Notes under the pieces: generated by a model
The model's input: only the letters and a program-made list of their open reading frames with translations
Told to the model about the DNA's origin: nothing
The model's database searches: none
Part shown: piece after piece, positions 16,908 through 35,735 of the stretch
Layout: every line of letters begins with the position of its first letter
How positions within the stretch are numbered: position 1 is the first letter of the stretch
NCBI GenBank assembly: GCA_963727525.1
Contig: CAVSGO010000005.1
Span: 192,001-256,000 of the forward strand
Source: an uncultured bacterium
Lineage (GTDB): Bacteria; Krumholzibacteriota; Krumholzibacteriia; LZORAL124-64-63
Length of the DNA: 64,000 nucleotides
Direction of reading: 5' to 3'
Program-made: the position numbers and the translations under genes

Positions 16908-16936
16908 TTGAAATAGTCAATCTACTCTGGTATTCT
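16908..16936 (+). promoter_or_regulatory. sigma70-type promoter of the S8 protease gene
   Basis: TTGAAA-17 nt-TATTCT with TG extended -10 in an AT-rich gap. Confidence 0.55.
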
Positions 16937-17019
16937 CGATGGGTTCAAACGAGGGCGTTCCGCGCGCGCTCGTCACGTTGTGCCAGGTCCTTTTTGATTC
17001 TTGCCAAGGAGACGACCCC

Positions 17020-20000: not shown

Positions 20001-20100
20001 CACTGGCGATGCCGGACAGCATGTCGCCTCGGGCGTGTACTTCGCCAAGTACCGCTCGGGCAACCAGCAGCAGACGCGCAAGATGACGCTCGTGAAGTAG
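17020..20100 (+). CDS. secreted S8 (subtilisin-family) serine peptidase with FlgD-Ig/T9SS-like C-terminal domain
   Basis: Triad motifs GHIDSG, GHGTHTAG, SGTSMACPH; signal peptide; C-terminus 'QNTPNPFNP...WDG...SGVYF...KMTLVK'. Confidence 0.93.
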   Translation: MLRKLTLGTFTLSLLIIAIAAPAGATIIDPGLRDFMTQKADTELIPVLMVFDTPYDVSDLHDAAIEQPDMGKRRTSVIVALKKYAKKLMQNSVDVLTAPDTPGVAEDVNVLYFANALAFRGDAAMIEALGADKATAATLIYDEPRNLLDMTDARQAPSAAAAETRSDRADTVWNVRWVHADRVWNELGYTGDGVLVGHIDSGVWLAHHDISGHIYHNPNEIAGNGIDDDGNGYVDDVNGWDFGDGDNNPNDDNLDGGHGTHTAGTVCGDGANGTQTGVAPGAMLLVCKVFAHDGTGTVAMIWEGEQYAVEMGARVLTMSLGVKGNDLPASLLRSERANCAAIREAGVAIFNSSGNEHFEFDPPFECGMTARVPAPWNVDAGVPWSSTGGVVSVGGTGYQNNNVYSFSSQGPVTWGDIDPYNDWPYNPGAGLVKPDIAAPGTNVNSLVPPQGYSGNTWSGTSMACPHLAGVAALMLEKNPSLTPESIDAIIEQSAVDLGVAGKDNIFGSGLVNAYEAVQHTPTTQVANLVQTAVLPDPAGDQVLDPGIVSPIAFTLTNNSTVVTATNVQATLSVVSNPYVTVVDGSASFPDIPAHLGTGDNTADPFTLDVAAGTPQGYQFTMLLTVTCDGGFSRTFDLEHFAGLPELLTHNVGGVFGSVTDQGILGYLSDDQTVGDGFGLAGAGSALFLGSFWGGNTTLYICNRDYHGQGAGIETYEWVTRQSPNGRVRDLGATGSDQTFSAAFTDSGHANPRGFVVEQTSYAYASSPNDQFVILEYHVTNAGPYSVPTYWMGVFCDWDVADAASNVGSSDVDRHAIWMTGNTGGPYYGLTLLGDAPPENVTFINNPTYVYPNSAIDDGNKLRFLRSLITVHDTPTPDDWSMCCSAGPFAFEPGAEHTAAFAMVYGATLEDFLANVDAAKAVYNPSTPVTDELPVKMFHLAQNTPNPFNPVTSLKYEVATPGLVDLAIYDVSGQRVRTLVNEERPVGQYSVTWDGTGDAGQHVASGVYFAKYRSGNQQQTRKMTLVK

Positions 20101-20156
20101 TTGCTGAAGTGATCGCCGAAGCACGATCGATTCATAAAGATATACCGTAGTGCAAC

Positions 20157-20190
20157 AGCCCCGGCCATCACGGCCGGGGCTCTTTTTTTT
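20157..20190 (+). terminator. intrinsic terminator
   Basis: AGCCCCGGCC-atcac-GGCCGGGGCT stem followed by T8. Confidence 0.9.
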
Positions 20191-20270
20191 CATCGGCATG
20201 TGATTTGCCGGCCCGTGCCTCATCCAACTCCACCACAACGCCCCTGAACCCAAACCTCTCGAGGTATGCC

Positions 20271-20771
20271 ATGCGCTCGACCGTCAATGCCTCTCTGGTT
20301 CTCCTGCTCACCCTCGCGTTGCCCGCTCTGGCGGCCGATTCCCGGCCTCAGCCACCGATCGACCCCACAGCGGCCAACACGGTCGTTCCTCTCGCGATCA
20401 ACCAGGCCGAGATCGCCGCCAACGTGGTGACGGATCCGGGCGCCGCCCCTGCTCCGGCACATGATCTCGTGGATCCGATGATCCTGGACATCGAGGGCGT
20501 CATCGCCGCGAGCCGCGCCCAGGTGGCCGAGCTGGCCGGCCGGGTGGCGTCCACCACGAACGCCACGACGATCGACGACCTGCAGCAGCAGATCGCCCAG
20601 GTCAAGCAGCATACCGAACTGGACATCCTCGCCATCCAGGTGCGTTACGCGCGTCAGCGCGGGCACGAGGGCCTCGCCGCGCGCATCGAGGCCGACATCG
20701 CCCTCATCCAGACTCCGCCGCTCCCCACACCGCCCACCACGCCGCGGCCCGCGCCTGGCGACCAGCACTAG
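20271..20771 (+). CDS. small secreted helical/coiled-coil hypothetical protein
   Basis: Signal peptide ..LPALA, heptad-like 'IDDLQQQIAQVKQ', Pro-rich tail; GAGG RBS; 11 nt upstream of next gene. Confidence 0.7.
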   Translation: MRSTVNASLVLLLTLALPALAADSRPQPPIDPTAANTVVPLAINQAEIAANVVTDPGAAPAPAHDLVDPMILDIEGVIAASRAQVAELAGRVASTTNATTIDDLQQQIAQVKQHTELDILAIQVRYARQRGHEGLAARIEADIALIQTPPLPTPPTTPRPAPGDQH

Positions 20772-20782
20772 GGGGCCCCGTC

Positions 20783-23700
20783 ATGACGAGAAGGGTCTTC
20801 CATCACATCAGTTCTGGCTTGCTGGCGATCCTGGCCGCGTTGAGCCTGGCGCAGACGGCCCTCGCCGACGTGGCGCCGAGTGTCGAGATCCGCCTGGCGT
20901 CGCCCTTCGTGGCGGTGAAGGCCGGCGAGGTCTACGACGGCCGTTACGAGATCGTCTGCGCCGAGGACGGCACGCTCGCCGACTTCGCGCTCGCCGGTGC
21001 GAGCTGGTCGGCCAGCCTCACCGACGCGCCGCGTTCGCGCGACGTGCGTGCCGGCGATCGTTTCGTCGTGCCTTTCACGGCCACGCCCATGGACCCCACG
21101 CAGAAACTCGAGTTCACCTGCTCCTTCAACGGTTACACGGTGCACTACGCGATCGACCTGTCCGAGCGCAACGTGCACGACATGACCGAGGGCGCGCCTA
21201 CAGCGCCGGTTCCCGCGTTTCTGGACGGACGCGGCGACCCCTCGTACCGCGACGAGGACCTCGTCCTTGGCGGTCCGGGTCCCGAGCCGCCGCGCGACAG
21301 CCGGCGCACCGTCACCGTCACCGGGCGTTTCGGCTGCACGCTCGACGACGGTACCTACCTGCCGGGTCACTCCGTCCTCGTGCAGGTATACGACGAGGAC
21401 TCACTCGTCGACGACCTCCTGGTCTCCGGCTACACCAACTACGATGGCTACTACACGCTCGCCTTCAACAGCGACGACGCCGGCTGGCTCGACGAGCCCG
21501 ACGTCTATGTGCGCTTCACCACGAGCAACGGACGGATGCGCGTGTACGAACCGTCCAGCGGCGACAACTACGCCTTCGTCACCGGCGTCACGAACGACTA
21601 CACCGGCACCTACCTCGACTACGGTTCGCTTCAGCCCGCGAATCCCGACCTGCATCCTTGCGTCTTCCTGCACACGCAGGGCTCCCGCGGCTGGGTACAC
21701 GACAACAACCTCGGCTACGACGTGCCGGCGGCGCGCGTGGAATGGCCATCGGCCGCCTGGCCGAATACCAGCGGCGACGGGCGCATCCAGATTCGCAGCG
21801 ACTTCAGCTGGAACGATGGCACGCTCTGGCACGAGTACGGCCACTGGTTCGACCACGAGATGGCGAGCTGGGAGCCGTTCAACTACTGCAACGGCGTCTG
21901 CGACAACCCGCCCGACTGCGGCCACTGCTTCTGGTGCCAGGAGAGTCAGGCCATCGCCTGGCTCGAGGGCTGGGCGCAGTTCCACTCCTGGGCCGTCGGC
22001 TCCTGGTACCCCGGCTACTATGGGCGCTCGCCCCTGAGCGCCGTGAATGCCGAGAACCTCGGCACGTGCAGCGGCACCTATGGCGACCCCACCCTCACCG
22101 AGGGCTTCATCGCCGCCCTCACGCAGGACATCGCCGACAACGCGCAGGACAGCCATGGCGTGTACGGCACCTACACCGACCGGCTGGCCGTGGGAGTCGA
22201 CGACGTGTTCAACCTCAACGCCCTCGACAACCCGACCGGCTCGATGGACTTCATCAGCAAGTACATCGCGCGCTACGTGAGCCAGCGCGAGCTGTTCTGG
22301 GAGACGGCCGCGAACTGCGGCTACGACCTCGACGCCACCGCGCCCGGTCTGGTCGCCAACCTGCACTCCACCGACCACACAGCGGGCCTCGAGTCGCCCG
22401 ACCCCACGGTGAGCATGGCCTGGACGCGCGCGTCGGACAATCTGTCCGGCATCGCCGGCTACGGCCTGTTCGTCGCAGTGGGCGGACCGGGCCTGCCCTC
22501 GGCGGTGCAGGACATCGGCGACGTGACCAGCTACACCACCGATCCCCTGCCGCCGGGCACCTACTATTTCTGCATCCGCAGCGTTGACAACGCCGGCAAC
22601 TGGAGCGCCAGCTACGCGAGCTGGGGGCCGATCGTGATCCGCGAGCCGGATCCGGCCGATCTCATTCCGTACCTGCCCACGGGCTGGGATTACCCTCTGG
22701 TGCCGCGCGACGCCAACGACGCCACCATCAGCTCGGCTGAGGTCTCCGCCACGCTACCGGGAGGCGCCGCGAGCACCTACTGGAACATCTTCGGCCAGAA
22801 CCAGGGCGAGGCATCCACGGGCGTGGGCTTCTATGCCTGGCTGAACGTCGATGGCGAGAACGAGGCCAGCGTGTACTGGAACGCGGTGGGGGCGGGCGGC
22901 CTCTACTACGGTCCGAACCGCGGCCCGCTGACCGTACAAGCCGGCCGCCACTCGTTCACCTGTCGTCACGACGCCACGGACGTGGTGGCGGAGATCGACG
23001 AGACCAACAATGTCTTCGGCCGGCAGTTCATCTGGACGACGCCGACCATCTCCCCCGGCGCGCTGGTAACCCGCCCGGCGCCACCGGCCACCAACGGTGG
23101 CTGGAGCGACGTCACCTCGGGGTCCCTGTACTACAACTGCGACGGCGTCAGCGTCTCCACCACGACCGGCTGGTGGCACGCCGTGGCGGTGTGGGCCGAT
23201 TCGGACAGCGACGACTTCGACTGCCGTCTGCACACCACCTCCACCGGCGCCGAGACCGGCTTCGGCGCCAGCCTCGGCTACAGCACCAACGTCTACGGCC
23301 AGCTCGACGGCGTGATCGCCAACCGCAACCAGGTGAGCGACACGAGCTGGGACGTCGGCGTACTGCGCTGGAGCGGCGAGGGCACCTACAAGGCCTATCA
23401 CGCCTACAGCCAGATCCTCACCTTCGGCGATTCGGTCACCGTCGCGATGCCAACGAACGTGCCGATCCTGCTGCGGGAGTTCTTTGTGAGCACGGACGTC
23501 ATCGGCCCCGTGAGCGTGACCGCGCAGTGCGATCCCGCCGACGGTCCGATGCGGCTCGCCCTGCTGAACAGCACGTTCACGACGGGAAGCTTGACGTCCG
23601 GCGACCAGCTCGGTACCCAGTGGACCGACGGCGACGGCTTCGCTCGCGTGTCCAGCGACATCGCCACCACCGGCTGGTACGGCATCGTCGTCTACCGTGA

Positions 23701-25150
23701 CCAGGCAGGCGGTCTGCCGGCGACGAACGTGACCATCGAGGTCTCCACCACGCCGCCGGATCTGGCGCCGTGGACGCCGAGCGGCTGGTACGCGGGCCTC
23801 GTGCCTCGATCGGCACTCGACGGGACATCCACCTCCTGCCCGCTGCCCGACACGCTGTACTCCACGCCGCAGTACTCGTATCTCAACGTGGCAGCCACGA
23901 ACCTCGGGCCCGTGCCGTCGACCCTGCCGACGCACCTCTACCGCGACGATGCCTACCTCGGCTACGTCAGCTGGGGCGAGTTACCCGCAGGAGGCCAGGT
24001 GTCCTACAACTGGAACCATCAGTTCGCCTTCTCGCCGGGACGGCACATCCTCGCCCTGCGCGTGGACGGCGGCAACGAGATCGAGGAGACGAACGAGACC
24101 AACAATATCCGCGGCGAGCACTGGATCTGGAGTCCCTACGCCATGACGCCGCCCGCGACGGCGGCGCGTCCGGCTCCGCCGGAGCGCACGGCGGGCTGGG
24201 ACGACGTGACGATACCTGAAAGCCTCTACTACAACTGCGACGGTCTACGCCTCGCGGGGACCGGGGTGGGTTACTGGAAGAGCGTCGCCATCCTGCCGGC
24301 CGCAGGGTCAGACTTCGACCTGCGCCTGCATACGAAGGGAACCGGCACGAAGGATGGCTTTAGCGGTGCACTCGCGGGATCGTTCTTGGCCGGCACGGTC
24401 ACCGAGTACATGCTCGTGGACTACAACTCCACCGCGTTTGCCGACTACGATGTCGGCGTGCTGCGCTGGAGTGGTTCCGGCACCTACAAGGCGCAAACAT
24501 CCGCGTCGCAGTACCTCGGCGACGCACCCGTGGGCACCTGGGGTCCCTACACCATCGCGAGTGGCGGACTGACGCAGCTCATCGAGTTCCGGTTCCCGGT
24601 CGACGCCTACCAGATCACGGTCGACAACCTGTCGGGCGCCGACCTGGCGATCGCGATGCACAAGTCCGGCGTCGTGTACCAGAACCGGCTGGACGCGTTC
24701 GCCGAAGCCACGGATGCGGTGGCCGGAGCCGACCAGTCCATGACCGTCTCCGTCTCGGAGCAGGCCTACTACTGCCTCGTGATCTACCGACAGGATCAGG
24801 GCGGCGGTGCGGCCTCGTTCAACCTCACGATCTCGTCGGGCCTCACACCCGTCGAGGACGGCCTGCCCGCGCTGGCGAACCGCCTGGCCGGCGCCTCGCC
24901 CAATCCGTTCAACCCCCGCACGACCCTTGCGTACGAGGTCGCCAGGAGCACGCACGTGTCGCTGGCGATCTACGACCTGAACGGACGGCGGGTGCGCACG
25001 CTCGTCGACCGGCCACTGGCGGCCGGTCGCTATGAGGCGACCTGGGACGGCACGGACGACCGGGGCGGCCGCCTGGCTTCCGGCATGTACGTGGCGCAGT
25101 ACCGCGCGAGCGGCCAGGTGCAGACACGCAAGCTGACCCTGGTCAAGTGA
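20783..25150 (+). CDS. large secreted zinc metallopeptidase-like protein with duplicated CARDB-like modules and FlgD-Ig C-terminal domain
   Basis: HEYGH plus downstream 'WLEGWA' Glu; FN3-like segment; two 'E.DETNN' CARDB-like motifs; 'PNPFNP...KLTLVK'. Confidence 0.8.
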   Translation: MTRRVFHHISSGLLAILAALSLAQTALADVAPSVEIRLASPFVAVKAGEVYDGRYEIVCAEDGTLADFALAGASWSASLTDAPRSRDVRAGDRFVVPFTATPMDPTQKLEFTCSFNGYTVHYAIDLSERNVHDMTEGAPTAPVPAFLDGRGDPSYRDEDLVLGGPGPEPPRDSRRTVTVTGRFGCTLDDGTYLPGHSVLVQVYDEDSLVDDLLVSGYTNYDGYYTLAFNSDDAGWLDEPDVYVRFTTSNGRMRVYEPSSGDNYAFVTGVTNDYTGTYLDYGSLQPANPDLHPCVFLHTQGSRGWVHDNNLGYDVPAARVEWPSAAWPNTSGDGRIQIRSDFSWNDGTLWHEYGHWFDHEMASWEPFNYCNGVCDNPPDCGHCFWCQESQAIAWLEGWAQFHSWAVGSWYPGYYGRSPLSAVNAENLGTCSGTYGDPTLTEGFIAALTQDIADNAQDSHGVYGTYTDRLAVGVDDVFNLNALDNPTGSMDFISKYIARYVSQRELFWETAANCGYDLDATAPGLVANLHSTDHTAGLESPDPTVSMAWTRASDNLSGIAGYGLFVAVGGPGLPSAVQDIGDVTSYTTDPLPPGTYYFCIRSVDNAGNWSASYASWGPIVIREPDPADLIPYLPTGWDYPLVPRDANDATISSAEVSATLPGGAASTYWNIFGQNQGEASTGVGFYAWLNVDGENEASVYWNAVGAGGLYYGPNRGPLTVQAGRHSFTCRHDATDVVAEIDETNNVFGRQFIWTTPTISPGALVTRPAPPATNGGWSDVTSGSLYYNCDGVSVSTTTGWWHAVAVWADSDSDDFDCRLHTTSTGAETGFGASLGYSTNVYGQLDGVIANRNQVSDTSWDVGVLRWSGEGTYKAYHAYSQILTFGDSVTVAMPTNVPILLREFFVSTDVIGPVSVTAQCDPADGPMRLALLNSTFTTGSLTSGDQLGTQWTDGDGFARVSSDIATTGWYGIVVYRDQAGGLPATNVTIEVSTTPPDLAPWTPSGWYAGLVPRSALDGTSTSCPLPDTLYSTPQYSYLNVAATNLGPVPSTLPTHLYRDDAYLGYVSWGELPAGGQVSYNWNHQFAFSPGRHILALRVDGGNEIEETNETNNIRGEHWIWSPYAMTPPATAARPAPPERTAGWDDVTIPESLYYNCDGLRLAGTGVGYWKSVAILPAAGSDFDLRLHTKGTGTKDGFSGALAGSFLAGTVTEYMLVDYNSTAFADYDVGVLRWSGSGTYKAQTSASQYLGDAPVGTWGPYTIASGGLTQLIEFRFPVDAYQITVDNLSGADLAIAMHKSGVVYQNRLDAFAEATDAVAGADQSMTVSVSEQAYYCLVIYRQDQGGGAASFNLTISSGLTPVEDGLPALANRLAGASPNPFNPRTTLAYEVARSTHVSLAIYDLNGRRVRTLVDRPLAAGRYEATWDGTDDRGGRLASGMYVAQYRASGQVQTRKLTLVK

Positions 25151-26055: not shown

Positions 26056-27216
26056 TTACCGATACATCGATTTCAGGTCGCCGAAGGTCCGCGACTCAGT
26101 CGCCACGTTCGGCTGCACGGAGATCGTGAGGGCGACCTCCGTCGTGCAGGGCGGGTCATAGTCGTCGGTCGCCGCGAAATGGATCACATGGTCGCCGACC
26201 TCGTTGATGTCCGGCGTGAATGTCATGCCCACGGTCGACGGATTACCATCGGTGCTCACGAAGTCGAAGTTCGCGAGCCCGCCGGTATCAACCTCGGTAT
26301 GGACCGTCTGCCCGGCTTCGGGCCCGATGAATCCCACCGTGAGATTCAGCGATGGATGTGTCTCGTCCAGCACCACGGTGTTATTTGCGGGGAAGTTGAT
26401 GGCTACCGGGCACTGATTGACGTCGCCGCTGACGTTGAAACAGATCTCCTGGTCGTCGAGCCAATCGACACCGCTGATGCCATCGGGCCCCGCGTAGTCG
26501 GCGCCGGAATGATCGAAGCGGCCGACGTTGAAATAGTTCACGCCGTCGCCCTTGTTCACCCCGGTGGTCGCGGCGGAGCCACCGAAACCGCCACTGCCAC
26601 CGGAGGCGTCGCCCGTTGTCCACTGCATGTCGCCGTAGCAGAAGCAGACGTTGTTGCCGGCGCCGATGCCGTCGAACGTACCGTCGCTGATGATGAGCTG
26701 GAACGTCGACTGCAGGTCCGTGTGCTGGGAGTAGTAGCCGACGTGATCCCAGGTGACCGCCAGGTAGTGCGGATCCATCTTCATCCACACGACGCCAGCG
26801 CCGTTATCGAGCGCGCGTGTATCGACGTCGCCCCAGAAGGCCGCAACCATCGGGTAGTCCGCGACGGGGAATCCCTCTGGCGTATAGGTCGAGTAGGGTC
26901 CGCCGAACGAGACGTTGCCATTGTTGTTGATCCATAGCTGAGTCTGCGGCGTGCCGAAGAGATCGAAGGTGAACGGGAGCGTCACCATATCACTCGAACC
27001 ATCGTCGTTCTCGTAACAATCGGCCTGAGCGTTCGTGAAAGGAACGACCTGCCAGGTCGAGTCCAGCGGCAAGCAGAGCCCGGGACTGCCCTGCTGATTG
27101 CAGGGATACTGCGAGGGAACGGACACCGTGGGGCGATCTCCGGGTTTCCCGGCCAGCGCCGGTACCGACACCGCGAGGATCAACCCGACCAGCAACACGA
27201 CATAGCGGGGTCGCAT
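26056..27216 (-). CDS. secreted nidogen(NIDO)-like domain protein with C-terminal FGDLKSMYR tag
   Basis: 'NDDGSS..LPF.F..FG...WINNNGNVSF', 'AAFWGDVDTR', 'TFQLII', 'CYGDMQWTTG' match NIDO pattern; signal peptide. Confidence 0.82.
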   Translation of the reverse strand: MRPRYVVLLVGLILAVSVPALAGKPGDRPTVSVPSQYPCNQQGSPGLCLPLDSTWQVVPFTNAQADCYENDDGSSDMVTLPFTFDLFGTPQTQLWINNNGNVSFGGPYSTYTPEGFPVADYPMVAAFWGDVDTRALDNGAGVVWMKMDPHYLAVTWDHVGYYSQHTDLQSTFQLIISDGTFDGIGAGNNVCFCYGDMQWTTGDASGGSGGFGGSAATTGVNKGDGVNYFNVGRFDHSGADYAGPDGISGVDWLDDQEICFNVSGDVNQCPVAINFPANNTVVLDETHPSLNLTVGFIGPEAGQTVHTEVDTGGLANFDFVSTDGNPSTVGMTFTPDINEVGDHVIHFAATDDYDPPCTTEVALTISVQPNVATESRTFGDLKSMYR

Positions 27217-27462
27217 GGAGAACCTCCTGAATTGATGGGGATACGGATGCTGAAGCGGTCGGACGAGGCTGGCCGGATCAGCGACGGATGCACCGTCGAT
27301 CGTCGGCACACTGCCCAGCGGTCGGCGCGGCGACCGGGATCGGTGGCGATTCACCACATATACCCCGGAAGACCGACGACAGTATCAACGGGTTCATAGC
27401 AGACGGCAACGATCCGATATCTTTAGTGATGCTCAGGAGTTGTGGTACGTGTCTCGAGCCGT

Positions 27463-27951
27463 TTACCCCAGCGACTTCACGAACACGTACTTCGCATCGC
27501 CCGGCGCGTAGAAGTCGGCGAACACGGCCGCGGTGTCGTAGCCGCAGCGCGTGTAGAAGCCTCGCGTAGGCGCGTACTGCGGTCGGCCGCTCGTCTCGGC
27601 GTAGACGGCGGTGCCGCCTGCCGCGCGGATCTTCAACTCCGTGGCCACGAGCAAACTCCGTCCGAGGCCGCTACCCTGCCGATCGGGATGGACGGCGATC
27701 CAGTAGAGGTCGAAGCTGCCCTCGGTGAGGGGGATGCGGCCGTAACACGAGTAGCCGACGAGACGCGCGCCGTCGTCGGCGAGGAGGAACTCGTAGCCGC
27801 TGGCCGCGCCCTTCTCCAGGCGCTCGTCCACCAGTTCCTGGGCGATAGCGACTTCCTCGGCGTGGAAGAACCCCGTCGCCTCGACGAGCGCACGCACGGC
27901 CCCGGCATCGGCCGGCCGCACGGAATCGCGATAGCCCGCGACCTCGGTCAT
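27463..27951 (-). CDS. GNAT family N-acetyltransferase
   Basis: 'LYWIAVHPDRQGSGLGRSL' acetyl-CoA motif A, 'RGFYTRCGY'; ATGA overlap with upstream gene. Confidence 0.9.
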   Translation of the reverse strand: MTEVAGYRDSVRPADAGAVRALVEATGFFHAEEVAIAQELVDERLEKGAASGYEFLLADDGARLVGYSCYGRIPLTEGSFDLYWIAVHPDRQGSGLGRSLLVATELKIRAAGGTAVYAETSGRPQYAPTRGFYTRCGYDTAAVFADFYAPGDAKYVFVKSLG

Positions 27952-29690
27952 GTCTCGCGACTCCCTTTGCTCAGACCTTCCAGGAAGAACCGGGCGTTGC
28001 GGCCCAGGGTACGGGTACGGTAGCCACCCTCCTGCACCACGAGGGTCGGCAGCCGCAGAGCGCCGATCAGGCGGCCGTTGGCGTGGAAATCGTCGGCCTT
28101 CAGGGTCCACGTGCCCGTGGGATCGCCGCGGCCGGTATCCAGGCCCAGGGCGACCACGAGTACGGCGGGGGCGAAGCGGCGGATCCGGCGCAGCGCCGCC
28201 TCCAGGGCTTCGCGATATCCCGCGCCATCGAGTTGCTCGGGCAGCGGCACGTTGACATTGAACCCGCGGCCGGCGCCCTCCCCCTGCTCGTCGGCAAATC
28301 CCGTGAAGTACGGGTAGGCGAAGCGCGGATGGCCGTGCAGCGAGATCGTGAGCACGTCGTCCCGCGCGTAGAAGATGTCCTGCTGACCGTTGCCGTGGTG
28401 ATAATCCACGTCGAGGATCGCCACCTTGCCCAGATTCGACAGTGCGTGGGCGGCGATCGCCGTGTTGTTGAAGTAGCAGAAGCCGCCGAAGGCGCGGCGC
28501 TCGGCGTGGTGACCGGGCGGCCGCACGAGCGCATAGGCCAGCCGGCGGCCACCGCGGATCTCCTCGACACAGGCCATGGCGCAATCGACCGCCCCACGCG
28601 CGGCCAGGAACGCGTTGCGATTCAGCGGCGTGAACGTGTCGATACAGTAGTACCCCGCACGGATCGCCAGGTCCTGCGGGGGCCGCTGAACGTTGCGGAT
28701 GGGGAACACGTACGGATAGACCGATTTGTCGATCGGCAAGCTGGCGCATACCCGGCGCAGGTATTCCACGAAGTTCGAATCGTGGACCTGCTTGATCCGA
28801 TCGAGCGAGCGCTCGCGGGCCTTGATCATGTCGCACAGCCCCGAGCCGTCCAGCTCGGCGAGGATACGGCGCACACGCACCGGCGCCTCCACGTAGCCGC
28901 GGTCGTGGACGTGATGGATGTCGTGCCGGCTGTTCACAGCCAGGGCGATGCGCTCGTGCCCGATCACGGCCGGCATCCGCGGCGGCGGCGCCGGCTCGCG
29001 CGCGTTGCGTGGCGGCCGCAGCGGGACCGGGTCCTCCTTGAAGGAACGCACCACGGCATCGACGTAGGCCGGCGGGCACAGGTCGCCGTACTTGCGCTCG
29101 AGGATGGCGCGCACCACATCGCGCACGTACGCGCGCCGCAGTGGCTGATCACGATCTAGCAGGTCGGCCACGAGCAGCGGCATGTCCTTGTCGCCGGGTT
29201 CGATGGGTCGGGTGTAGTCGTTGTTGATCAGCGGCCGCGCGCCGAAGCGTTCGTAGAACCGCAGCCGCGCGCGATTGGCCGCGAGATCGGCGCGATCGCT
29301 GCAAGAGGCGGGATCATCGGGCAGGCACTCGAAGAAGATGGCACGGGCACCGAACTCGCGGGCCTCCTCGCGCACGCGTTGATAGAGTGCGGCCCCGATG
29401 CCCCGGCTGGTCAGGCGCGAGCTGCTGGCGATATAATCGAGGTACACCATGTGCAGCTGCGGTTCATGCAGCACGAGCGCGAAGCCCTGCACCCTGCCGT
29501 CGCGAGCCTCGGCCACATGCAGCACGCCGTGAAAACGCTGGATGAACGGGTCGCGCAGCTTGGCCGCAATGCCGGTGATGTCGCGCTCCGACGCGCCGGA
29601 AAACTGGTCGCGCATGATCGCCTGCACCTGCGCGATGGCCTCGCGGTTGATCGGCAGGGAGTCGTCATGGATGCGGCGAATGCGGAACAT
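27948..29690 (-). CDS. GNAT domain fused to histone-deacetylase/acetylpolyamine amidohydrolase domain
   Basis: N-terminal 'LDYIAS....SRGIGAAL...RFYERFGA'; C-terminal RPPGHHA, GGFCYFNN, DVDYHHGNG, LGLD, QEGGY all intact. Confidence 0.9.
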   Translation of the reverse strand: MFRIRRIHDDSLPINREAIAQVQAIMRDQFSGASERDITGIAAKLRDPFIQRFHGVLHVAEARDGRVQGFALVLHEPQLHMVYLDYIASSSRLTSRGIGAALYQRVREEAREFGARAIFFECLPDDPASCSDRADLAANRARLRFYERFGARPLINNDYTRPIEPGDKDMPLLVADLLDRDQPLRRAYVRDVVRAILERKYGDLCPPAYVDAVVRSFKEDPVPLRPPRNAREPAPPPRMPAVIGHERIALAVNSRHDIHHVHDRGYVEAPVRVRRILAELDGSGLCDMIKARERSLDRIKQVHDSNFVEYLRRVCASLPIDKSVYPYVFPIRNVQRPPQDLAIRAGYYCIDTFTPLNRNAFLAARGAVDCAMACVEEIRGGRRLAYALVRPPGHHAERRAFGGFCYFNNTAIAAHALSNLGKVAILDVDYHHGNGQQDIFYARDDVLTISLHGHPRFAYPYFTGFADEQGEGAGRGFNVNVPLPEQLDGAGYREALEAALRRIRRFAPAVLVVALGLDTGRGDPTGTWTLKADDFHANGRLIGALRLPTLVVQEGGYRTRTLGRNARFFLEGLSKGSRET

Positions 29691-29702
29691 CGTCTCGTCC
29701 CT

Positions 29703-30695
29703 CTAGGTGAGTCCGTGCCCGCTCGCCGCGTGGGCGACGATACGGGCGATGATCTCGCGGTATGCGAGCCCCGCACGGGCCGCCGCGGCGGCGTATCCCG
29801 CGTCCGGGGAGAGGCACGCGTTCGCGTTGGCCTCCAGGATCCACGGGTTTCCGTCGGCATCGACACGGAGGTCTACCCGCGCCCATCCTCGCAGGCCCCA
29901 CAGGCGCCAGCACGCGCGGGCCAGATCGCTCAACCGCGCCATCAGCGGCATCTCGGCAGGATCCTCGGGAAACCGGCGCACCGTGTGCGTGTACTCGAAG
30001 GAGCCCTCGTCCCACTTGGCGGCGTAGCCAACGATGCGAGGCTTCTGTGCCGGAAAATCCGCGAAGACGATCTCCGCGATGGGCAGGACCTCGACACCGT
30101 GCGGCCCGGCGAGCAGCGACAGATTGAACTCCCTGCCTTCAATGTAGCGCTCGGCGAACCACGGCGCTCCTGGTCGGTCGGCACGCGCTGCGAGGAGTGC
30201 CCGCGCCGCGCCGGTACCGGCGACGACGGCGGTGTCGTCCATGCCAAGCGACGCGTCCTCCCACAGCGACTTGACGATCCAGCGCGTGTCGGCGTCGTCC
30301 ACGCCGGGATCGACGTCGGACGCGGTGAACCATTGCGGCGTCGGTAGACCGGCGTCGCGCAGCCGCTGCTTGGCCAGCAGCTTGTGCGAGGTCAGGTAGA
30401 TGGCCGCGGCAGGGCAGCCTGCGTAGCGCTGCCTGCGAGCCTCCAGCAAATCCGGCACGAGATGGATCAACCGGCCGTGGCCGCCGAGGGACTCCACGAG
30501 ATTGAAGACGACGTCCGGCCGCTCGCGATCCAGGTAGCTCGCCACGGAGCCCAGGTCGAGATCGCAGCCGAACGCGCCGGCCTCGTGGCCCAGGTCGCGC
30601 AGCGCCTGCGCGACGGCCGCGACCTGGACCAGAACGTCCTGCTCGTCAGGCGCCGCGTGCGGCGCGACCGCGTTGTGCAGTATCGCCACGCGCAT
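29703..30695 (-). CDS. D-Ala-D-Ala-ligase-like ATP-grasp enzyme (second copy)
   Basis: VFNLVES, VKS..EDASLG, ERYIEGREF, ARVDLR, LEANAN. Confidence 0.88.
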   Translation of the reverse strand: MRVAILHNAVAPHAAPDEQDVLVQVAAVAQALRDLGHEAGAFGCDLDLGSVASYLDRERPDVVFNLVESLGGHGRLIHLVPDLLEARRQRYAGCPAAAIYLTSHKLLAKQRLRDAGLPTPQWFTASDVDPGVDDADTRWIVKSLWEDASLGMDDTAVVAGTGAARALLAARADRPGAPWFAERYIEGREFNLSLLAGPHGVEVLPIAEIVFADFPAQKPRIVGYAAKWDEGSFEYTHTVRRFPEDPAEMPLMARLSDLARACWRLWGLRGWARVDLRVDADGNPWILEANANACLSPDAGYAAAAARAGLAYREIIARIVAHAASGHGLT

Positions 30696-31707
30696 GGCCG
30701 TTCACCTCCGGGGGCAGGGCCAGGACGCCGATGCGCTCGCTCGCAGACAGGACGATGCGGCCGACGAGCGTCCGGTACGGGATGCCCATCGCCGTGCAGA
30801 TCATCGGCAGATCCGAGTGCTCCGGGTGCATGCCCGCCAGCGGATTGAGCTCCATGATCTGGGGTTCGCCACGCTCGTCGCAGCGCAGGTCGACGCGGCC
30901 GGCGTCGCGGCAGCCGAGCACGCGCCATACGGCGAGCGCCGCGGCCTCGGCCCGCGCGATCACGGGATCGTCGCCGCCGCGCACGGGCACGTAGTCGACC
31001 AGATCCTCGCAGTTCTCCTTGTTGGCGTAGCTGTAGACCCCAGCCTCCGCCTGCGCCCGCAGCACCACCTCGAGCCCGCCGATCGACTCGGCCCGCTCTC
31101 CCGTGCCGATCACGCCGATCGTGAACTCGCGACCCGGGAGGTAGGTCTCCACGAGCACCGGCTGGCGGAACACGGCTAGCAAGTACGCGCAGCGCTCGCG
31201 CAACTCGTCCGGCGTGCGGATGATCGAGGCCCCGTCGATGCCCTTGCTCGTGCCCTCGGCCATCGGCTTGGCGAAGAGCGGATAGGGCAACGCCAGATCG
31301 TCGAGATCGGTCAGGGCGCGCACCTCGGCGAAGGGCGGCGTCGGCAGCCCGGCGTCGCGCATGACGCGCTTGGTCATGCCCTTGTGCAGACACAGCGCCA
31401 GGAGTAGCGGGTCGCTGAAGGTGTACGGGATGGCGTAGGCGTCGAGCAGCGCCGGCACCTGCGCCTCGCGCGCGATGCCGTGCAGCCCCTCGGCGATGTT
31501 GAACACGAGGTCCCAGCGTTCCCCCGCAGCCAGACACTGCGCGAGCGCATGGATACGCCCGATGCGGTCGACCCGGTGGCCGAAGCTACGTAGGGCCCCG
31601 TCGATGGCGTCGATGGTAGAGGCGCGGTCGAACTCCGCCGTTTCCTCCTCGCCGTAGCCGGCGCGCAGGTAGTCCTCGCGCAGGTCGTAGGTCAGACCGA
31701 TGTTCAT
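30646..31707 (-). CDS. D-Ala-D-Ala-ligase-like ATP-grasp enzyme (first copy)
   Basis: VFNIAEG, KP.AEGTSKG, ETYLPGREF, GRVDLR, MELNPLAG. Confidence 0.9.
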   Translation of the reverse strand: MNIGLTYDLREDYLRAGYGEEETAEFDRASTIDAIDGALRSFGHRVDRIGRIHALAQCLAAGERWDLVFNIAEGLHGIAREAQVPALLDAYAIPYTFSDPLLLALCLHKGMTKRVMRDAGLPTPPFAEVRALTDLDDLALPYPLFAKPMAEGTSKGIDGASIIRTPDELRERCAYLLAVFRQPVLVETYLPGREFTIGVIGTGERAESIGGLEVVLRAQAEAGVYSYANKENCEDLVDYVPVRGGDDPVIARAEAAALAVWRVLGCRDAGRVDLRCDERGEPQIMELNPLAGMHPEHSDLPMICTAMGIPYRTLVGRIVLSASERIGVLALPPEVNGHARGDTAQRGRAARGA

Positions 31708-33014
31708 GTTTGCACCTCCGGCGCCAGATCCGGGTATCTATGGACATTACCGGTGAAGCTACGGAGCAGCACCTCGTCACCCTCGCGCCCGAGGAGATAA
31801 TCGGGTTGCAGCGGCACCTTGCCGCCGCCGCCCGGGGCATCGATGACATAGGTGGGCACCGCGTAGCCGGTGGTGTGACCGCGCAGGCCGCGGATGATCT
31901 CCAGGCCACTCGCGACGCTCGTGCGGAGGTGCGCCGATCCCGAGATCGGGTCGCACTGGTAGAGATAGTATGGACGCACGCGCATCAGCAGCAGACGGTG
32001 GACAAGCGACTTCATCACGGCCACGCTGTCGTTCACACCCTTCAGTAGCACCGTCTGCGAACCGAGCGGAATGCCGGCATCGGCCAGGCGGCGGCAGGCT
32101 CGCGCCGTCTCGGGCGTGGCCTCGTCCGGGTGCGTGAAGTGCAGGCTGAGGAACAGCGGGTGGTGGCGGCGCAGCATGCGCACGAGTTGCGGCGTGACGC
32201 GCTGCGGCAAGACCGCCGGCACCTTGGTGCCGATGCGCACGAACTGCACGTGCGGGATGCGACGCAGCTCCGTGAGCAACCAGTCGAGCTTCTCGTCGGA
32301 CACGAGCAGCGGATCGCCACCCGAGAGCAGCACGTCACGGATCGCCGGCGTTCGGCGAATGTACTCGAGGCCATCGAGCAGGCGATCGCGGTCGGGCAGG
32401 ATCTCGTCCTGCCCCACCACGCGCGAGCGCGTGCAGTAGCGGCAGAACATGGCGCATTGGTCGTTCACCAGGAAGAGCACGCGGTCGGGATAGCGATGCA
32501 CGATGCCGGGCACCGGGCTCGACGCGTCCTCGTTGAGCGGATCGTCCGACTCTCCGGGGGAACACATCAGCTCGGCCGGCACCGGGACGACCGTCTTGCG
32601 CAGGGGCTGCTCCGGATCGCGACGATCGAGCAGGCTCGCGTAGTACGGCGTCACCGCCACGGGGAGCAGCGAGCCGTGGAACTGCATGGCCTGCGTCTCG
32701 GCCTCGCTGAGGTCGAGCACGCGCGCTAGCTCGTCGGCCGTGCGGATGCGATTGCGCAGCTGCCAGTGCCAGTCGTGCCAGTCGCGATCGCCGGCCGCCG
32801 GAAAGTACTGGCTGCGGAACGCACGCGTACGGGGGCCGGATCTGGGCAAAGAGGACTTGAGGAGATAGCTCGGAGGGAGGTCGGCTGGTGCGTGATCAGC
32901 TTCGGGAACGCTCCCAACGGACGGAGGCTCGTCGGCGGTGTCCGACGGGACCTCCCGCTGGTACGTGGGCTGCGGCCCACTGAGCGCGCCACCAGGCACG
33001 CGATGATGCTGCAT
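31704..33014 (-). CDS. kamA: KamA-family radical SAM enzyme, lysine 2,3-aminomutase-like
   Basis: HRYPDRVL, CAMFCRYC, LSGGDPL, YQCD and VIDAPGGGGK (PLP lysine); AAAGGAG RBS. Confidence 0.9.
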   Translation of the reverse strand: MQHHRVPGGALSGPQPTYQREVPSDTADEPPSVGSVPEADHAPADLPPSYLLKSSLPRSGPRTRAFRSQYFPAAGDRDWHDWHWQLRNRIRTADELARVLDLSEAETQAMQFHGSLLPVAVTPYYASLLDRRDPEQPLRKTVVPVPAELMCSPGESDDPLNEDASSPVPGIVHRYPDRVLFLVNDQCAMFCRYCTRSRVVGQDEILPDRDRLLDGLEYIRRTPAIRDVLLSGGDPLLVSDEKLDWLLTELRRIPHVQFVRIGTKVPAVLPQRVTPQLVRMLRRHHPLFLSLHFTHPDEATPETARACRRLADAGIPLGSQTVLLKGVNDSVAVMKSLVHRLLLMRVRPYYLYQCDPISGSAHLRTSVASGLEIIRGLRGHTTGYAVPTYVIDAPGGGGKVPLQPDYLLGREGDEVLLRSFTGNVHRYPDLAPEVQT

Positions 33015-33118
33015 TCGTCTCCTTTGCCTGCGGCACGGTACCCGTACCGGCGGTCCTGGCGCGTCGCTGGGGCCATGTCTGGCGCTCTTTGCGACGCAAC
33101 CGGTGCTGATGGCGCGAG

Positions 33119-33146
33119 AAGATAACGAGCGGCGCCCGCTTGTCAA
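33119..33146 (-). promoter_or_regulatory. sigma70-type promoter of the kamA operon
   Basis: TTGACA-16 nt-TATCTT on minus strand about 105 nt upstream of kamA. Confidence 0.55.
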
Positions 33147-33233
33147 TCCCCTCCCGCCTGCCAGGGCGAAAAATCTTTCGGAAGGTCCGGGGCGGAACTT
33201 GAGGTCCCATTGCCGCGAACGTCTCCCGGCCGC

Positions 33234-33893
33234 TCATGACGGCACCACCATCCGGAAGATGCCGATCCAGTGGCACGCGCTGCCTGCCAGCACGAAGACA
33301 TGCCAGATCGTATGGTGAAAGGGCAAGCGGCGCCACACATAGAAGACCACGCCGCCCGTATAGAACAGGCCGCCGGCGAGCAGCCAGATCAGGACGACGC
33401 CATCGATGGTCTGCAGCATGGGCTTGATAGCGCTCACGATGAGCCAGCTCATGCCGAGGTAGATCGTCAGCGACGCCCAGCGGAAACGCCGGTTGGTGGC
33501 CACGTCGAGCGTGGCACCAGCCAGGGCCAGGCCCCAGGCCACACCGAAGAGCGTCCAGCCCCACGGCCCGCGCAGGGGCCCCAGACAGAACGGGGTGTAC
33601 GTACCCGCGATGAGCAGGTAGATGGCGGCATGGTCGATCTGCTTGAGTACGTGTTTGGCGCGCGGCCGGGTCACGGCATGGTACACGGTCGAGGCCAGGT
33701 AGAGCAGCACCAGCGTGCCACCGTAAATCGCCACGCTGGTCACGGCCCAGGCGTCGCCATGCCGGTAGGTCTGGACTACCAGCACCACGAGACCGGCCGT
33801 GGCCAGCAGCACGCCCAGGCCATGGGTCCCAGCATGCAGCCACTCCTCGAGCGGCGAGTAGTAGCCACCGGTATGGGCGCGCTGCTCCACCAA
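33234..33893 (-). CDS. hemolysin III / PAQR family membrane protein
   Basis: EE..H..TH, S..YH, DH.AIY..IAGTYTP, HTIWHVFV motifs; start uncertain. Confidence 0.92.
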   Translation of the reverse strand: MVEQRAHTGGYYSPLEEWLHAGTHGLGVLLATAGLVVLVVQTYRHGDAWAVTSVAIYGGTLVLLYLASTVYHAVTRPRAKHVLKQIDHAAIYLLIAGTYTPFCLGPLRGPWGWTLFGVAWGLALAGATLDVATNRRFRWASLTIYLGMSWLIVSAIKPMLQTIDGVVLIWLLAGGLFYTGGVVFYVWRRLPFHHTIWHVFVLAGSACHWIGIFRMVVPS

Positions 33894-34014
33894 GCTTATC
33901 ACCTCGAATGGCCACCTTGCGGCGGCGGGGGAACCATATTTCATGGGTCGATCGGAAGCGTAAACCCGGCGACCCGTCGCCGCCAGATGTCAGTACCGGG
34001 AGTTGCGTCAAGCC

Positions 34015-34650
34015 ATGGAGACACCCCCCAACTGGTTCGAGGACATCTACGCCGCAAGCACCGCCGAGGGCGACGGCGTGCCCTGGGCGCGCATGGCCCC
34101 CAGCGCCGAGATGATGACCTGGCTCGACCACGCGCAGCTCCGCGGCGACGGACTGAGCGCCCTCGTCGTGGGCTGTGGCCTGGGCGACGACGCCGAGGAA
34201 CTGGCACGTCGCGGCTTCGCCGTCACTGCGTTCGACGTGAGCGCCACGGCCATCGCGCTCTGCGGCGAGCGTTTTCCAGCCTCCCGGGTCGCGTACCAGG
34301 TGGCCGAGCTGTTCTCCGCACCGCCCGCCTGGCAGGGAGCGTTCGACCTGATCTGCGAGCACCGCACCGTCCAGAGCTTGCCCCCCGACTGGCAGGACCG
34401 CGGCATGGCCGCCATCGCGGCCTTCGCCCGGCCCGGCGGCGGCCGGATCCTGGCGATCGCCGACATGCGCCCGGAGGGTGCCGAGAAAACCGGTCCCCCG
34501 TGGCGGCTGCGCCCCGAGGAGCTGTCTGGCTTCCGCACCGCCGGCCTGCATGAGGAGAGCTTCATGCACGAGCCGCTACGGACGCGCGGCGGCCGCTCGC
34601 GCGTCACAGCCGTCTACACTCGTCCGGACCCGCGACTCCAGACGCAATGA
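34015..34650 (+). CDS. class I SAM-dependent methyltransferase (TPMT-like)
   Basis: VVGCGLGDDA motif I, FDVS.TAI, GPPW. Confidence 0.88.
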   Translation: METPPNWFEDIYAASTAEGDGVPWARMAPSAEMMTWLDHAQLRGDGLSALVVGCGLGDDAEELARRGFAVTAFDVSATAIALCGERFPASRVAYQVAELFSAPPAWQGAFDLICEHRTVQSLPPDWQDRGMAAIAAFARPGGGRILAIADMRPEGAEKTGPPWRLRPEELSGFRTAGLHEESFMHEPLRTRGGRSRVTAVYTRPDPRLQTQ

Positions 34651-34760
34651 CTCTGGACCCGACTTGACGCTCGTCGGCACGACCTCGATACTCTGACGGG
34701 CCGGCCCGGCCGGCCCCTGTCGCCGTCGCCCGATCGCATCTCTTCCCACGAGGTCTGCCG

Positions 34761-35735
34761 ATGCCCAAGCTCATCGACACCCTGCTCCTGCTCGCGCTGC
34801 CGGCCAGCGGCAAGTCCGAGGTGCGCCGGTATCTGGCCACCCTCGACCCCGCCGAGTGCCGTGACCTCCTCGGCATCGGCCCGACCGTGCAGCTCGATGA
34901 TTTCCCTTACGTGCACATCATGCGCCGCATCAGTGACGAGCTGAACCAGCGCGACCTGCCCGGCCCGTATTTTCTGTCCCCGGCGCTGCCCTTCCGCGAG
35001 CCGCGCGACTGGGGCACGTTGATCGAGCTGCTCAACGAGGACTATGACGATCTGCGCGCCCAGCGGCTGGCGAGGGCCGATTCCGCCGCGGCCTGGCTCT
35101 TCGACCGCTTCGACCGGGCCCGCGCCCTGGTGGGCGCCGACCCGGCGCTACGCAAACTTCCGGAGGGCGTGCGGCGCGAGTTGGAATCCACGCTCGAAAC
35201 CGAATGCCGCGAGCTCCTCGAGCAGAAGAACGCCGCCCACCCCGACACGCTCGACGGCAAGACGCTGCTGCTCGAGTTCGCCCGCGGCGGCGCCGACGGC
35301 TCGCCCATGCCGCTGCCGGCGCCGTACGGCTACCGCTACAGCCTGGACCGTCTCAGCGACCGCATCCTCTCGCGCGCGGCCGTCCTCTACATCTGGGTCA
35401 CGCCCGAGGAGTCGCGCCGCAAGAACACCGAACGCACCGACCCGGACGACCCGGGCAGCATCCTGCACCACGGCGTGCCTAACGCGGTGATGTATGGCGA
35501 TTACGGTTGTGACGACATGGCCTGGCTACTCAACCAGAGCGACCGCCTACGCACCATCCGCGTGGAAAAAAACGGCAAGGTGTACCATCTGCCGGTGGGA
35601 CGCCTCGACAACCGGGAGGATCGGACGACGTTCGTGCGCGAGGAGCCGTCGCAATGGGCACCGGCCGACGTGAAGAAGCTACGCGACGGCCTGAGCCAGG
35701 CCTTCGCTGACCTCCACCGCGCCCGCTCCGGCTAG
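34761..35735 (+). CDS. hypothetical protein with N-terminal P-loop-like motif
   Basis: LLLLALPASGKSE Walker-A-like; long ORF with genome-typical GC3 bias; GAGG RBS. Confidence 0.7.
   Translation: MPKLIDTLLLLALPASGKSEVRRYLATLDPAECRDLLGIGPTVQLDDFPYVHIMRRISDELNQRDLPGPYFLSPALPFREPRDWGTLIELLNEDYDDLRAQRLARADSAAAWLFDRFDRARALVGADPALRKLPEGVRRELESTLETECRELLEQKNAAHPDTLDGKTLLLEFARGGADGSPMPLPAPYGYRYSLDRLSDRILSRAAVLYIWVTPEESRRKNTERTDPDDPGSILHHGVPNAVMYGDYGCDDMAWLLNQSDRLRTIRVEKNGKVYHLPVGRLDNREDRTTFVREEPSQWAPADVKKLRDGLSQAFADLHRARSG

Follow-up and report, generated by a model that had tools for sequence, protein, structure and literature searches.

The 64,000-nucleotide (nt) stretch considered here (the window; C5:192001-256000, contig CAVSGO010000005.1 of assembly GCA_963727525.1) belongs to an uncultured bacterium of the Krumholzibacteriota, whose genome sequence comprises 4.66 Mb and is 96.7% complete. 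It harbors a compact five-gene operon that combines a homologue of lysine 2,3-aminomutase (KamA) with two ATP-grasp ligases resembling D-alanine–D-alanine ligase (Ddl), herein referred to as AG1 and AG2, an acetyltransferase–deacetylase fusion (GNAT::HDAC) and a second, small acetyltransferase (GNAT2). The GC content is ~0.65-0.71 across the region around this cassette, and the nearest relatives of the window genes stem from public records labelled Candidatus Krumholzibacteria. The operon consists of the following features:

33119..33146, minus strand: sigma-70-type promoter-like site, a consensus match with TTGACA at 33146-33141, a 16-nt spacer and TATCTT ending at 33119
31704..33014, minus strand: kamA, likely gene (436 amino acids, aa) within an open frame of 31704-33146 (480 aa, TTG start); predicted lysine 2,3-aminomutase, short form
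30646..31707, minus strand: AG1, 353 aa, Ddl-like ATP-grasp ligase
29703..30695, minus strand: AG2, 330 aa, second Ddl-like ATP-grasp ligase
27948..29690, minus strand: GNAT::HDAC (P0004), 580 aa, N-terminal acetyltransferase followed by an acetylpolyamine-amidohydrolase-like deacetylase
27463..27951, minus strand: GNAT2 (P0005), 162 aa, small acetyltransferase

The genes are tightly packed: kamA and AG1 share a 4-nt ATGA overlap (31704-31707), as do GNAT::HDAC and GNAT2 (27948-27951), while AG1 and AG2 overlap by 50 nt (30646-30695) and AG2 is separated from GNAT::HDAC by a gap of 12 nt (29691-29702). The promoter-like site is located in a 220-bp gap after an HlyIII-family gene that ends at 33234. 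It matches 10 of the 12 consensus positions, and such sites occur three times in the 7.2 kb scanned compared with 0.8 ± 1.1 times in shuffled sequences. Since the TTG at 33146, with which the open frame of kamA begins, coincides with the first three bases of the predicted −35 hexamer, the true start of the gene is more likely the ATG at 33014-33012. This codon lies 4 nt after an AAGGAG motif, would yield a protein of 436 aa and encodes a Met that aligns with the Met of close KamA relatives.

KamA is composed of the Pfam domains Radical_SAM and LAM_C and aligns over 361 residues with the structurally characterized lysine 2,3-aminomutase (LAM) from C. subterminale (PDB 2A5H; E 1.5e-140). Its translation carries the motifs CAMFCRYC (CxxxCxxC), YQCD, VIDAP and PGGGGK. 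The three cysteines of the radical-SAM motif (C231, C235 and C238) are invariant in all five aligned sequences, and so are the residues D399, D436 and K443 that match D293, D330 and K337 of 2A5H. From the LAM structure literature, we take the two aspartates to hold the ε-ammonium group of lysine and K337 to be the lysine that binds pyridoxal 5′-phosphate (PLP). The best NCBIfam match of KamA is TIGR03820 (AblA) with 505.1 bits, below the cut-off of 525.4, and covers only positions 4-360 of the 417 in this model, while the subfamily model TIGR00238 is passed (338 vs a cut-off of 199). This shortfall results from the absence of the C-terminal ~50 residues, as the KamA of the cassette and its orthologues stop early relative to the AblA paralogue encoded in the same genome and lack its Cys-rich tail. 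Moreover, the position of LAM Cys268 is occupied by Ser in the KamA of the window and by Ser, Asn or Thr among the cassette orthologues, and the AblA paralogue retains both the Cys268 equivalent and the C-terminal Cys cluster, which presumably constitute the structural zinc site of LAM. By these sequence features, KamA is a lysine-specific 2,3-aminomutase of a short form. EpmB of E. coli, likewise of the short form, produces (R)-β-lysine; hence, an (S)-configured product of KamA should not be assumed, and by analogy the enzyme may deliver the (R)-enantiomer rather than the (S)-β-lysine of AblA. An N-terminal extension of ~65 residues (32820-33014, minus strand) precedes the aminomutase core and contains an acidic, proline-bearing motif (roughly EVxSDxSDEPPS) that has been conserved across relatives from the Krumholzibacteria; in more distant cassettes, tblastn matches to KamA start at ~residue 90-110 and leave this extension unmatched.

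The two ligases are 31% identical to each other, and Dala_Dala_lig_C is the sole Pfam match of either. Their best NCBIfam Ddl scores (148.1 bits for AG1 and 100.3 bits for AG2) stay well below the respective cut-offs of at least 243 (243 for NF002378), and a protein-cluster lookup of AG2 returned 'Ddl family' cluster names only. Structure models predicted with AlphaFold2 (AF2; pLDDT 92.5 for AG1 from a 50-sequence alignment and 95.3 for AG2 from a 53-sequence alignment) have Ddl enzymes as their nearest solved folds, at 22-27% identity. For a residue map, AG1 and 49 orthologues as well as AG2 and 55 orthologues were aligned to E. coli DdlB and to the Ddl-like gene of the genome. Equivalents of DdlB K97, K144, E180, E187, K215, R255, D257 and N272, which together with E270 we take to be the ATP-, Mg- and acyl-phosphate-binding residues, are kept in 50/50 AG1 and 56/56 AG2 sequences, and E270 is kept in 50/50 and 55/56, respectively. 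The residues Y216, S150 and S281-L282, presumably those of the DdlB substrate site, are replaced in different ways: the position of Y216 harbors Glu in 48 of the 50 AG1 sequences and Trp in all 56 AG2 sequences, S150 is exchanged for Thr in AG1 and for Ala in AG2, and S281-L282 corresponds to Ser-Asp in the former and Ala-Gly in the latter, with the Asp (50/50) and the Gly (56/56) at the L282 position being invariant. Furthermore, AG1 retains DdlB G276, whereas AG2 has a Cys there. Both ligases thus look catalytically complete, yet unlike each other and unlike Ddl, and the acidic replacements in AG1 (Glu and Asp) would suit a cationic amine as acceptor. A separate Ddl-like gene (C5:584161-585075) keeps all 19 checked functional-site residues of DdlB. 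Complex prediction for AG1 and AG2 with family alignments gave a score of 0.00 in both runs, which weighs neither way on their binding. AG1 orthologues with one in-frame stop (TGA or TAG) occur at G005:C10:23394-24368, G004:C39:1222-2199, G052:C1:723495-724487 and G063:C6:194763-195752; these stops could be due to sequencing error, decay or recoding.

GNAT::HDAC combines the Pfam domains Acetyltransf_1 and Hist_deacetyl (254 bits). The best solved relatives of its deacetylase domain are acetylpolyamine amidohydrolases (APAH; E 1.3e-71 to 1.6e-64), and APAH structures (E 1e-71) rank ahead of HDAC6 (1e-59) by similarity. Residues H394, H395, D427, D429, H431, D518 and Y557 show at least 97% conservation across 77 sequences; among these, we take H394/H395 to be the catalytic His pair, the Asp-His-Asp triad to be the zinc ligands and Y557 to be the transition-state Tyr. 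As judged from these residues, the protein contains one intact APAH-type deacetylase domain. The acetyl-CoA-binding motif Q/R-x-x-G-x-G/A reads RGIGAA in its GNAT domain, with G97 and G99 conserved, and QGSGLG in GNAT2, with G97 conserved. GNAT2 has a GNAT family match in Pfam and resembles structure 2R7H (E 7.9e-47), an entry titled 'putative D-alanine N-acetyltransferase of GNAT family' whose protein stems from a Desulfovibrio G20 strain. Neither GNAT2 nor P0004 matched the AblB model TIGR03827 in the NCBIfam search (E ≤0.001).

The cassette recurs across a wide range of bacteria. Thousands of relatives of P0004 exist at ≥60% identity, and at least 555 loci related to GNAT::HDAC were found in a scan of species-representative genomes. 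Among the best 80 of these 555, 66 have at least 3.6 kb of upstream and at least 0.65 kb of downstream sequence, and 48 of these 66 adequately flanked loci encode KamA, AG1, AG2, GNAT::HDAC and GNAT2 in this order on one strand. Such an arrangement far exceeds chance. One further locus (L068) contains all five genes in another arrangement, and the remaining 17 lack at least one of the genes at the thresholds used, with 11 of them having none of the other four. Two of the 17 (L045 and L079, both from Calditrichaceae records) carry a divergent AG1-AG2-GNAT-KamA set (29-50% identity to the window proteins) directly upstream of GNAT::HDAC, which links the deacetylase module to two cassette layouts. 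In the tested genomes with a solitary GNAT::HDAC, a strong AG1 match was present elsewhere in 5/5 cases (276-523 bits), and the strongest three of these (G001, G004 and G005) have a second, weaker ligase match directly adjoining. According to the record titles, the carriers include Krumholzibacteria, Planctomycetota, several Desulfobacterota orders, Acidobacteria, Calditrichota and KSB1, as well as Fibrobacterota (Fibrobacteraceae), Myxococcota (Polyangiaceae) and Alphaproteobacteria (Kiloniellaceae), among others, and represent mostly sediment and marine lineages. Gene families in the flanks each recur in at most five of the 49 full loci, and the cassette is therefore regarded as self-contained. 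A Cys-rich protein of ~165-210 aa is encoded between kamA and AG1 in 11 or more related loci (L033:4392-4916, L044:4409-4933 and L031:4538-5056, with similar gaps in L009, L049, L051, L058, L062, L064, L081 and L084). Against the Pfam family CxxCxxCC (PF03692; cut-off 23), the three scanned proteins scored 25.5, 20.6 and 20.0, i. e. one of them passes, and a homologue was not found in the source genome with a single query search.

Several features had been described beforehand in a reading of the window from its sequence and open frames alone (the sequence-only reading), and these have held up well. It had listed five co-oriented genes with the overlaps given above behind a TTGACA promoter-like site, with which open frames, junctions and consensus scan agree. 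The lysine-specific residues it had attributed to KamA are borne out by the alignment with 2A5H, in which the CxxxCxxC motif, the PLP-binding lysine and the two aspartates are all present, and the conservation of the gene order it had suggested checking is found in the 48/66 loci.

Not all five genes are equally tied to each other. In a phylum sample of 121 genomes, AG1 (E ≤1e-60) was detected in 34, and GNAT::HDAC (E ≤1e-100) in 17 of these 34 and in 0/87 AG1-negative genomes. Six of the 17 AG1-positive genomes without GNAT::HDAC were fetched, and all six carry KamA, AG1, AG2 and GNAT2 contiguously at 48-71% identity. KamA, AG1, AG2 and GNAT2 are hence the obligatory core, and GNAT::HDAC, which lies between AG2 and GNAT2, is an optional insertion. 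Because these six relatives keep the core in one piece, deacetylation is unlikely to be a required biosynthetic step. The remaining links come from natural gene fusions. A search for longer AG2 relatives yielded 25 proteins; in P0127 (706 aa), AG1 (59% identity, residues 1-332) is fused to AG2 (50%, residues 364-661), and in P0138 (597 aa) AG2 is fused to GNAT2 (55%). P0088 (750 aa) combines GNAT::HDAC with GNAT2 (54%) into a GNAT-HDAC-GNAT protein. These Rosetta-stone fusions imply that all four proteins encoded downstream of KamA act in one process, and they provide an indirect basis for viewing AG1 and AG2 as one unit and, equally indirectly, for the heterodimer that the sequence-only reading had considered.

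The genome contains a second β-lysine locus (C7:1145982-1149530; L087, L092) that encodes AblA, a sodium:solute symporter and AblB. Its AblA is full-length and scores 761.3 bits with TIGR03820, and its AblB scores 312.2 bits with TIGR03827 (cut-off 205.1), so that the organism probably also makes N-ε-acetyl-β-lysine via this locus. The compound produced by AblA/AblB serves methanogens and certain bacteria as a compatible solute (Pflueger et al. 2003, as cited in the available text of PMC3543383). AblB-like matches (E ≤1e-40) are found in 12 of the 121 phylum genomes, seven with and five without AG1, and AblAB and the cassette are thus distributed independently in the phylum. Like AblA/AblB, the cassette pairs a lysine 2,3-aminomutase with a GNAT enzyme, and β-lysine would be the committed intermediate. 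Unlike AblA/AblB, it adds two ATP-grasp ligases and, in the case of the window, GNAT::HDAC, its GNAT2 has no TIGR03827 match, and its KamA stays under the AblA cut-off and lacks the Cys-rich C-terminal domain. A search of the genome revealed no EpmA above the family cut-off (best 246.9 vs 286.9 bits), and the best match lies in a 599-aa frame that is probably lysyl-tRNA synthetase. D-Lysine 5,6-aminomutase (PF09043) likewise gave no match in the genome, with control genomes giving none either.

Instructive parallels exist with other systems. In pyrrolysine biosynthesis, the radical-SAM lysine mutase PylB supplies a rearranged diamino acid that PylC, a Ddl-like ATP-grasp ligase, joins to the ε-amine of lysine. 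The cassette would follow the same logic, i. e. a lysine mutase provides a rearranged diamino acid and a Ddl-like ligase forms the amide, yet it differs from PylBCD by a PLP-dependent 2,3-aminomutase, by the lack of PylD, and by the presence of two ligases and acetyl-handling enzymes. The PylC model was absent from the NCBIfam matches listed (25 of 32 for AG1 and all 18 for AG2), with no search dedicated to it. The combination of a GNAT enzyme with ATP-grasp ligation is also known from the pathways to N-acetylglutaminylglutamine amide (NAGGN; Ngg/AsnO) and N-acetylaspartylglutamate (NAAG; NAT8L and RIMKLA/B), which build N-acetylated dipeptides that accumulate in the cytoplasm as solutes or metabolites. 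These systems differ in using α-amino acids and RimK-type ATP-grasp enzymes without an aminomutase or deacetylase, and the cassette contains no amidotransferase. With DdlB (PDB 2DLN/1IOW), AG1 and AG2 share the fold and the complete set of ATP/Mg/acyl-phosphate residues, but not the equivalents of Y216, S150 and L282 or a location in a mur/fts cluster, and both identity (22-27%) and model scores are low. The entire deacetylase domain can be aligned with APAH (PDB 9GKZ, 6PHR and 3Q9B), including conserved catalytic and zinc residues; unlike APAH, it follows an N-terminal GNAT domain in the same protein (elsewhere a C-terminal one is fused to it as well) and is tied to a β-lysine ligase cassette instead of polyamine genes.

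Taken together, it appears fairly probable that the operon is a self-contained cytoplasmic cassette for an N-acetylated, β-lysine-containing amide, i. e. a small peptide-like metabolite. The pathway would begin with the KamA-mediated conversion of L-lysine into β-lysine, in line with the sequence assignment of this enzyme. AG1 and AG2, which probably act as one unit, may then each form one ATP-dependent amide bond via an acyl-phosphate, as is suggested by the chemistry of the ATP-grasp family. At least one of these bonds probably involves a cationic amine as acceptor, for example an ε-amino group, instead of an α-amino acid carboxylate site. GNAT2 could acetylate a free amino group on either the substrate or the product. 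Where present, GNAT::HDAC might act on the same metabolite: its HDAC domain would deacetylate an aliphatic amine, and its GNAT domain would introduce an acetyl group. This would permit re-positioning of the acetyl group, charge tuning or turnover, and not an essential deprotection. As to the role of the product, a compatible or stress-protecting solute, or else a cytoplasmic metabolite akin to polyamines, seems likeliest, a suggestion we make with weak confidence. It is favored because the cassette is linked to neither an exporter nor a precursor peptide or envelope enzyme; the largely sediment and marine carriers and the precedents AblAB, NAGGN and PylBC also point toward a cytoplasmic solute. 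A more daring version of this proposal, which we put forward tentatively, is that a heteromeric, Ddl-derived ligase pair generates an acetyl-switchable N-acetylated β-lysyl isopeptide, which serves as stress solute or polyamine substitute in hundreds of mostly uncultured sediment or anaerobic species from more than ten phyla and whose charge is switched by the optional GNAT::deacetylase.

Other interpretations have to be weighed against this proposal. The sequence-only reading had envisaged a protect–ligate–deprotect route in which β-lysine is acetylated, ligated by both enzymes and finally deacetylated to a free β-lysine di- or oligopeptide. Every activity needed is encoded in one operon, the HDAC domain is intact and resembles deacetylases of N-acetylated aliphatic amines, and protection would make chemical sense, as an activated β-lysine carboxylate could cyclise onto its own ε-amine. 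As a core route, however, this order of events is not supported by the comparison of genomes, since half of the AG1-positive ones (17/34) do without GNAT::HDAC and the core is contiguous in 6/6 of those examined. A second GNAT fused to the deacetylase would also be superfluous for simple deprotection, and we thus consider this route unlikely. Much the same judgment, namely rather unlikely, applies to a polycationic, ε-linked β-lysine oligomer reminiscent of the streptothricin side chain, which would act as a polyamine surrogate or antimicrobial, with acetylation and deacetylation controlling its charge or protecting the producer. The Glu (48/50) at the Y216 position and the invariant Asp at the L282 position of AG1 fit a cationic acceptor amine, the deacetylase is nearest to acetylpolyamine amidohydrolases, and GNAT-mediated acetylation of a β-lysine amine is the mechanism of streptothricin self-resistance. 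Yet neither exporter nor immunity genes are conserved alongside the cassette, the pairing of two non-processive ligases of the Ddl type points to a defined product of two or three units instead of a polymer, and GNAT2 matched no streptothricin acetyltransferase model in NCBIfam (E ≤0.001). Breakdown of imported N-acetyl-β-lysine was rejected, as it needs no ligases.

Conceivably, the ligases could modify a protein or ribosomal peptide, akin to the β-lysylation of elongation factor P (EF-P), glutamylation by RimK or microviridin biosynthesis, in which two ATP-grasp ligases are paired with a GNAT enzyme. HDAC and GNAT enzymes often target protein lysines, and with no EpmA above the cut-off the canonical enzyme for EF-P β-lysylation was not identified in the genome. 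This scenario is nevertheless quite improbable: the flanks of the 49 loci contain no conserved target gene, the ligases are of the Ddl type by sequence and fold and not of the RimK or graspetide type, the deacetylase is nearest to small-molecule acetylpolyamine enzymes, and the patchy occurrence in the phylum (34/121) is unlike that of a housekeeping modification of a translation factor. A microviridin-like ribosomal peptide in particular was set aside, since the overlapping operon leaves no room for a precursor open reading frame. Finally, AG1 and AG2 might be redundant or variant peptidoglycan ligases that form D-Ala-D-Ala or D-Ala-D-X and lie next to unrelated neighbours, as would be expected from the database family name 'D-alanine--D-alanine ligase family' and the Ddl enzymes among the nearest structures. 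With 148 and 100 bits vs cut-offs of at least 243, replaced substrate-site residues, the separate Ddl-like gene on the same contig, and a tight co-conservation and gene fusions that tie the ligases to KamA and the GNAT partners, this explanation is the hardest to sustain and appears highly improbable. In this respect, the sequence-only reading was right to expect more of the ligases than D-Ala-D-Ala formation, as far as can be judged from their sequences. Its view that the known β-lysine contexts do not explain the cassette also agrees with the separate ablA/ablB locus and with the EpmA result.

A number of points speak against the proposed N-acetylated β-lysyl amide or call for caution. The score of KamA lies just under the AblA equivalog cut-off, and since the enzyme lacks the C-terminal domain of LAM, we infer its activity and stereochemistry. 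The roles ascribed to DdlB and LAM residues are those given in the literature. In the region of DdlB E15 the alignment is ambiguous, so that nothing was drawn from this position. Counts across related genomes are not independent and hence are descriptive, with no statistical test attached. On the metabolic side, the second and third building blocks of the product are a guess, a second β-lysine solute is not obviously needed in a genome that already holds the AblAB osmolyte route, and the flanks of the 49 loci contain no transporter or regulator conserved with the cassette.

The cassette is thus a widespread orphan pathway in which known enzyme families occur in a new combination that corresponds neither to Ddl nor to AblAB. 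Full-text literature searches, with subscription papers outside their coverage, found no publication that assigns a product to this gene set, as the sequence-only reading had surmised; the available text of PMC3543383 covers ablA/ablB only. Database names such as 'D-alanine--D-alanine ligase family' and 'histone deacetylase/acetylpolyamine amidohydrolase' mask what is a coherent pathway. Identification of the product would add a new branch to β-lysine metabolism, provide new Ddl-type ligase specificities that are useful as amide-bond biocatalysts for β-amino acids, and account for an accessory trait found in abundant, uncultured bacteria of sediments. As the cassette is small and self-contained, it is directly testable by heterologous expression.

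The operon is bordered by two genes on the same strand:

33234-33944, minus strand: HlyIII (Haemolysin-III)-family membrane protein, upstream neighbour
26056-27357, minus strand: protein with a NIDO (nidogen-like) domain, downstream neighbour

Neither of them is conserved beside the cassette in other genomes, as judged from the flanks of the 49 full loci. An Rfam scan of 26500-35000 (E ≤1) detected no riboswitch or leader, and its sole match is a sub-threshold small RNA hit at 33955-34027. Further away, positions 16912-25150 of the window (plus strand) encode two very large predicted secreted proteins with FlgD_ig-type C-terminal domains. One of them, 1062 aa long, is an S8 subtilase that weakly matches Por_Secre_tail, the other is a CARDB-domain protein of 1455 aa, and their FlgD_ig-type ends suggest a sorting-domain secretion system.

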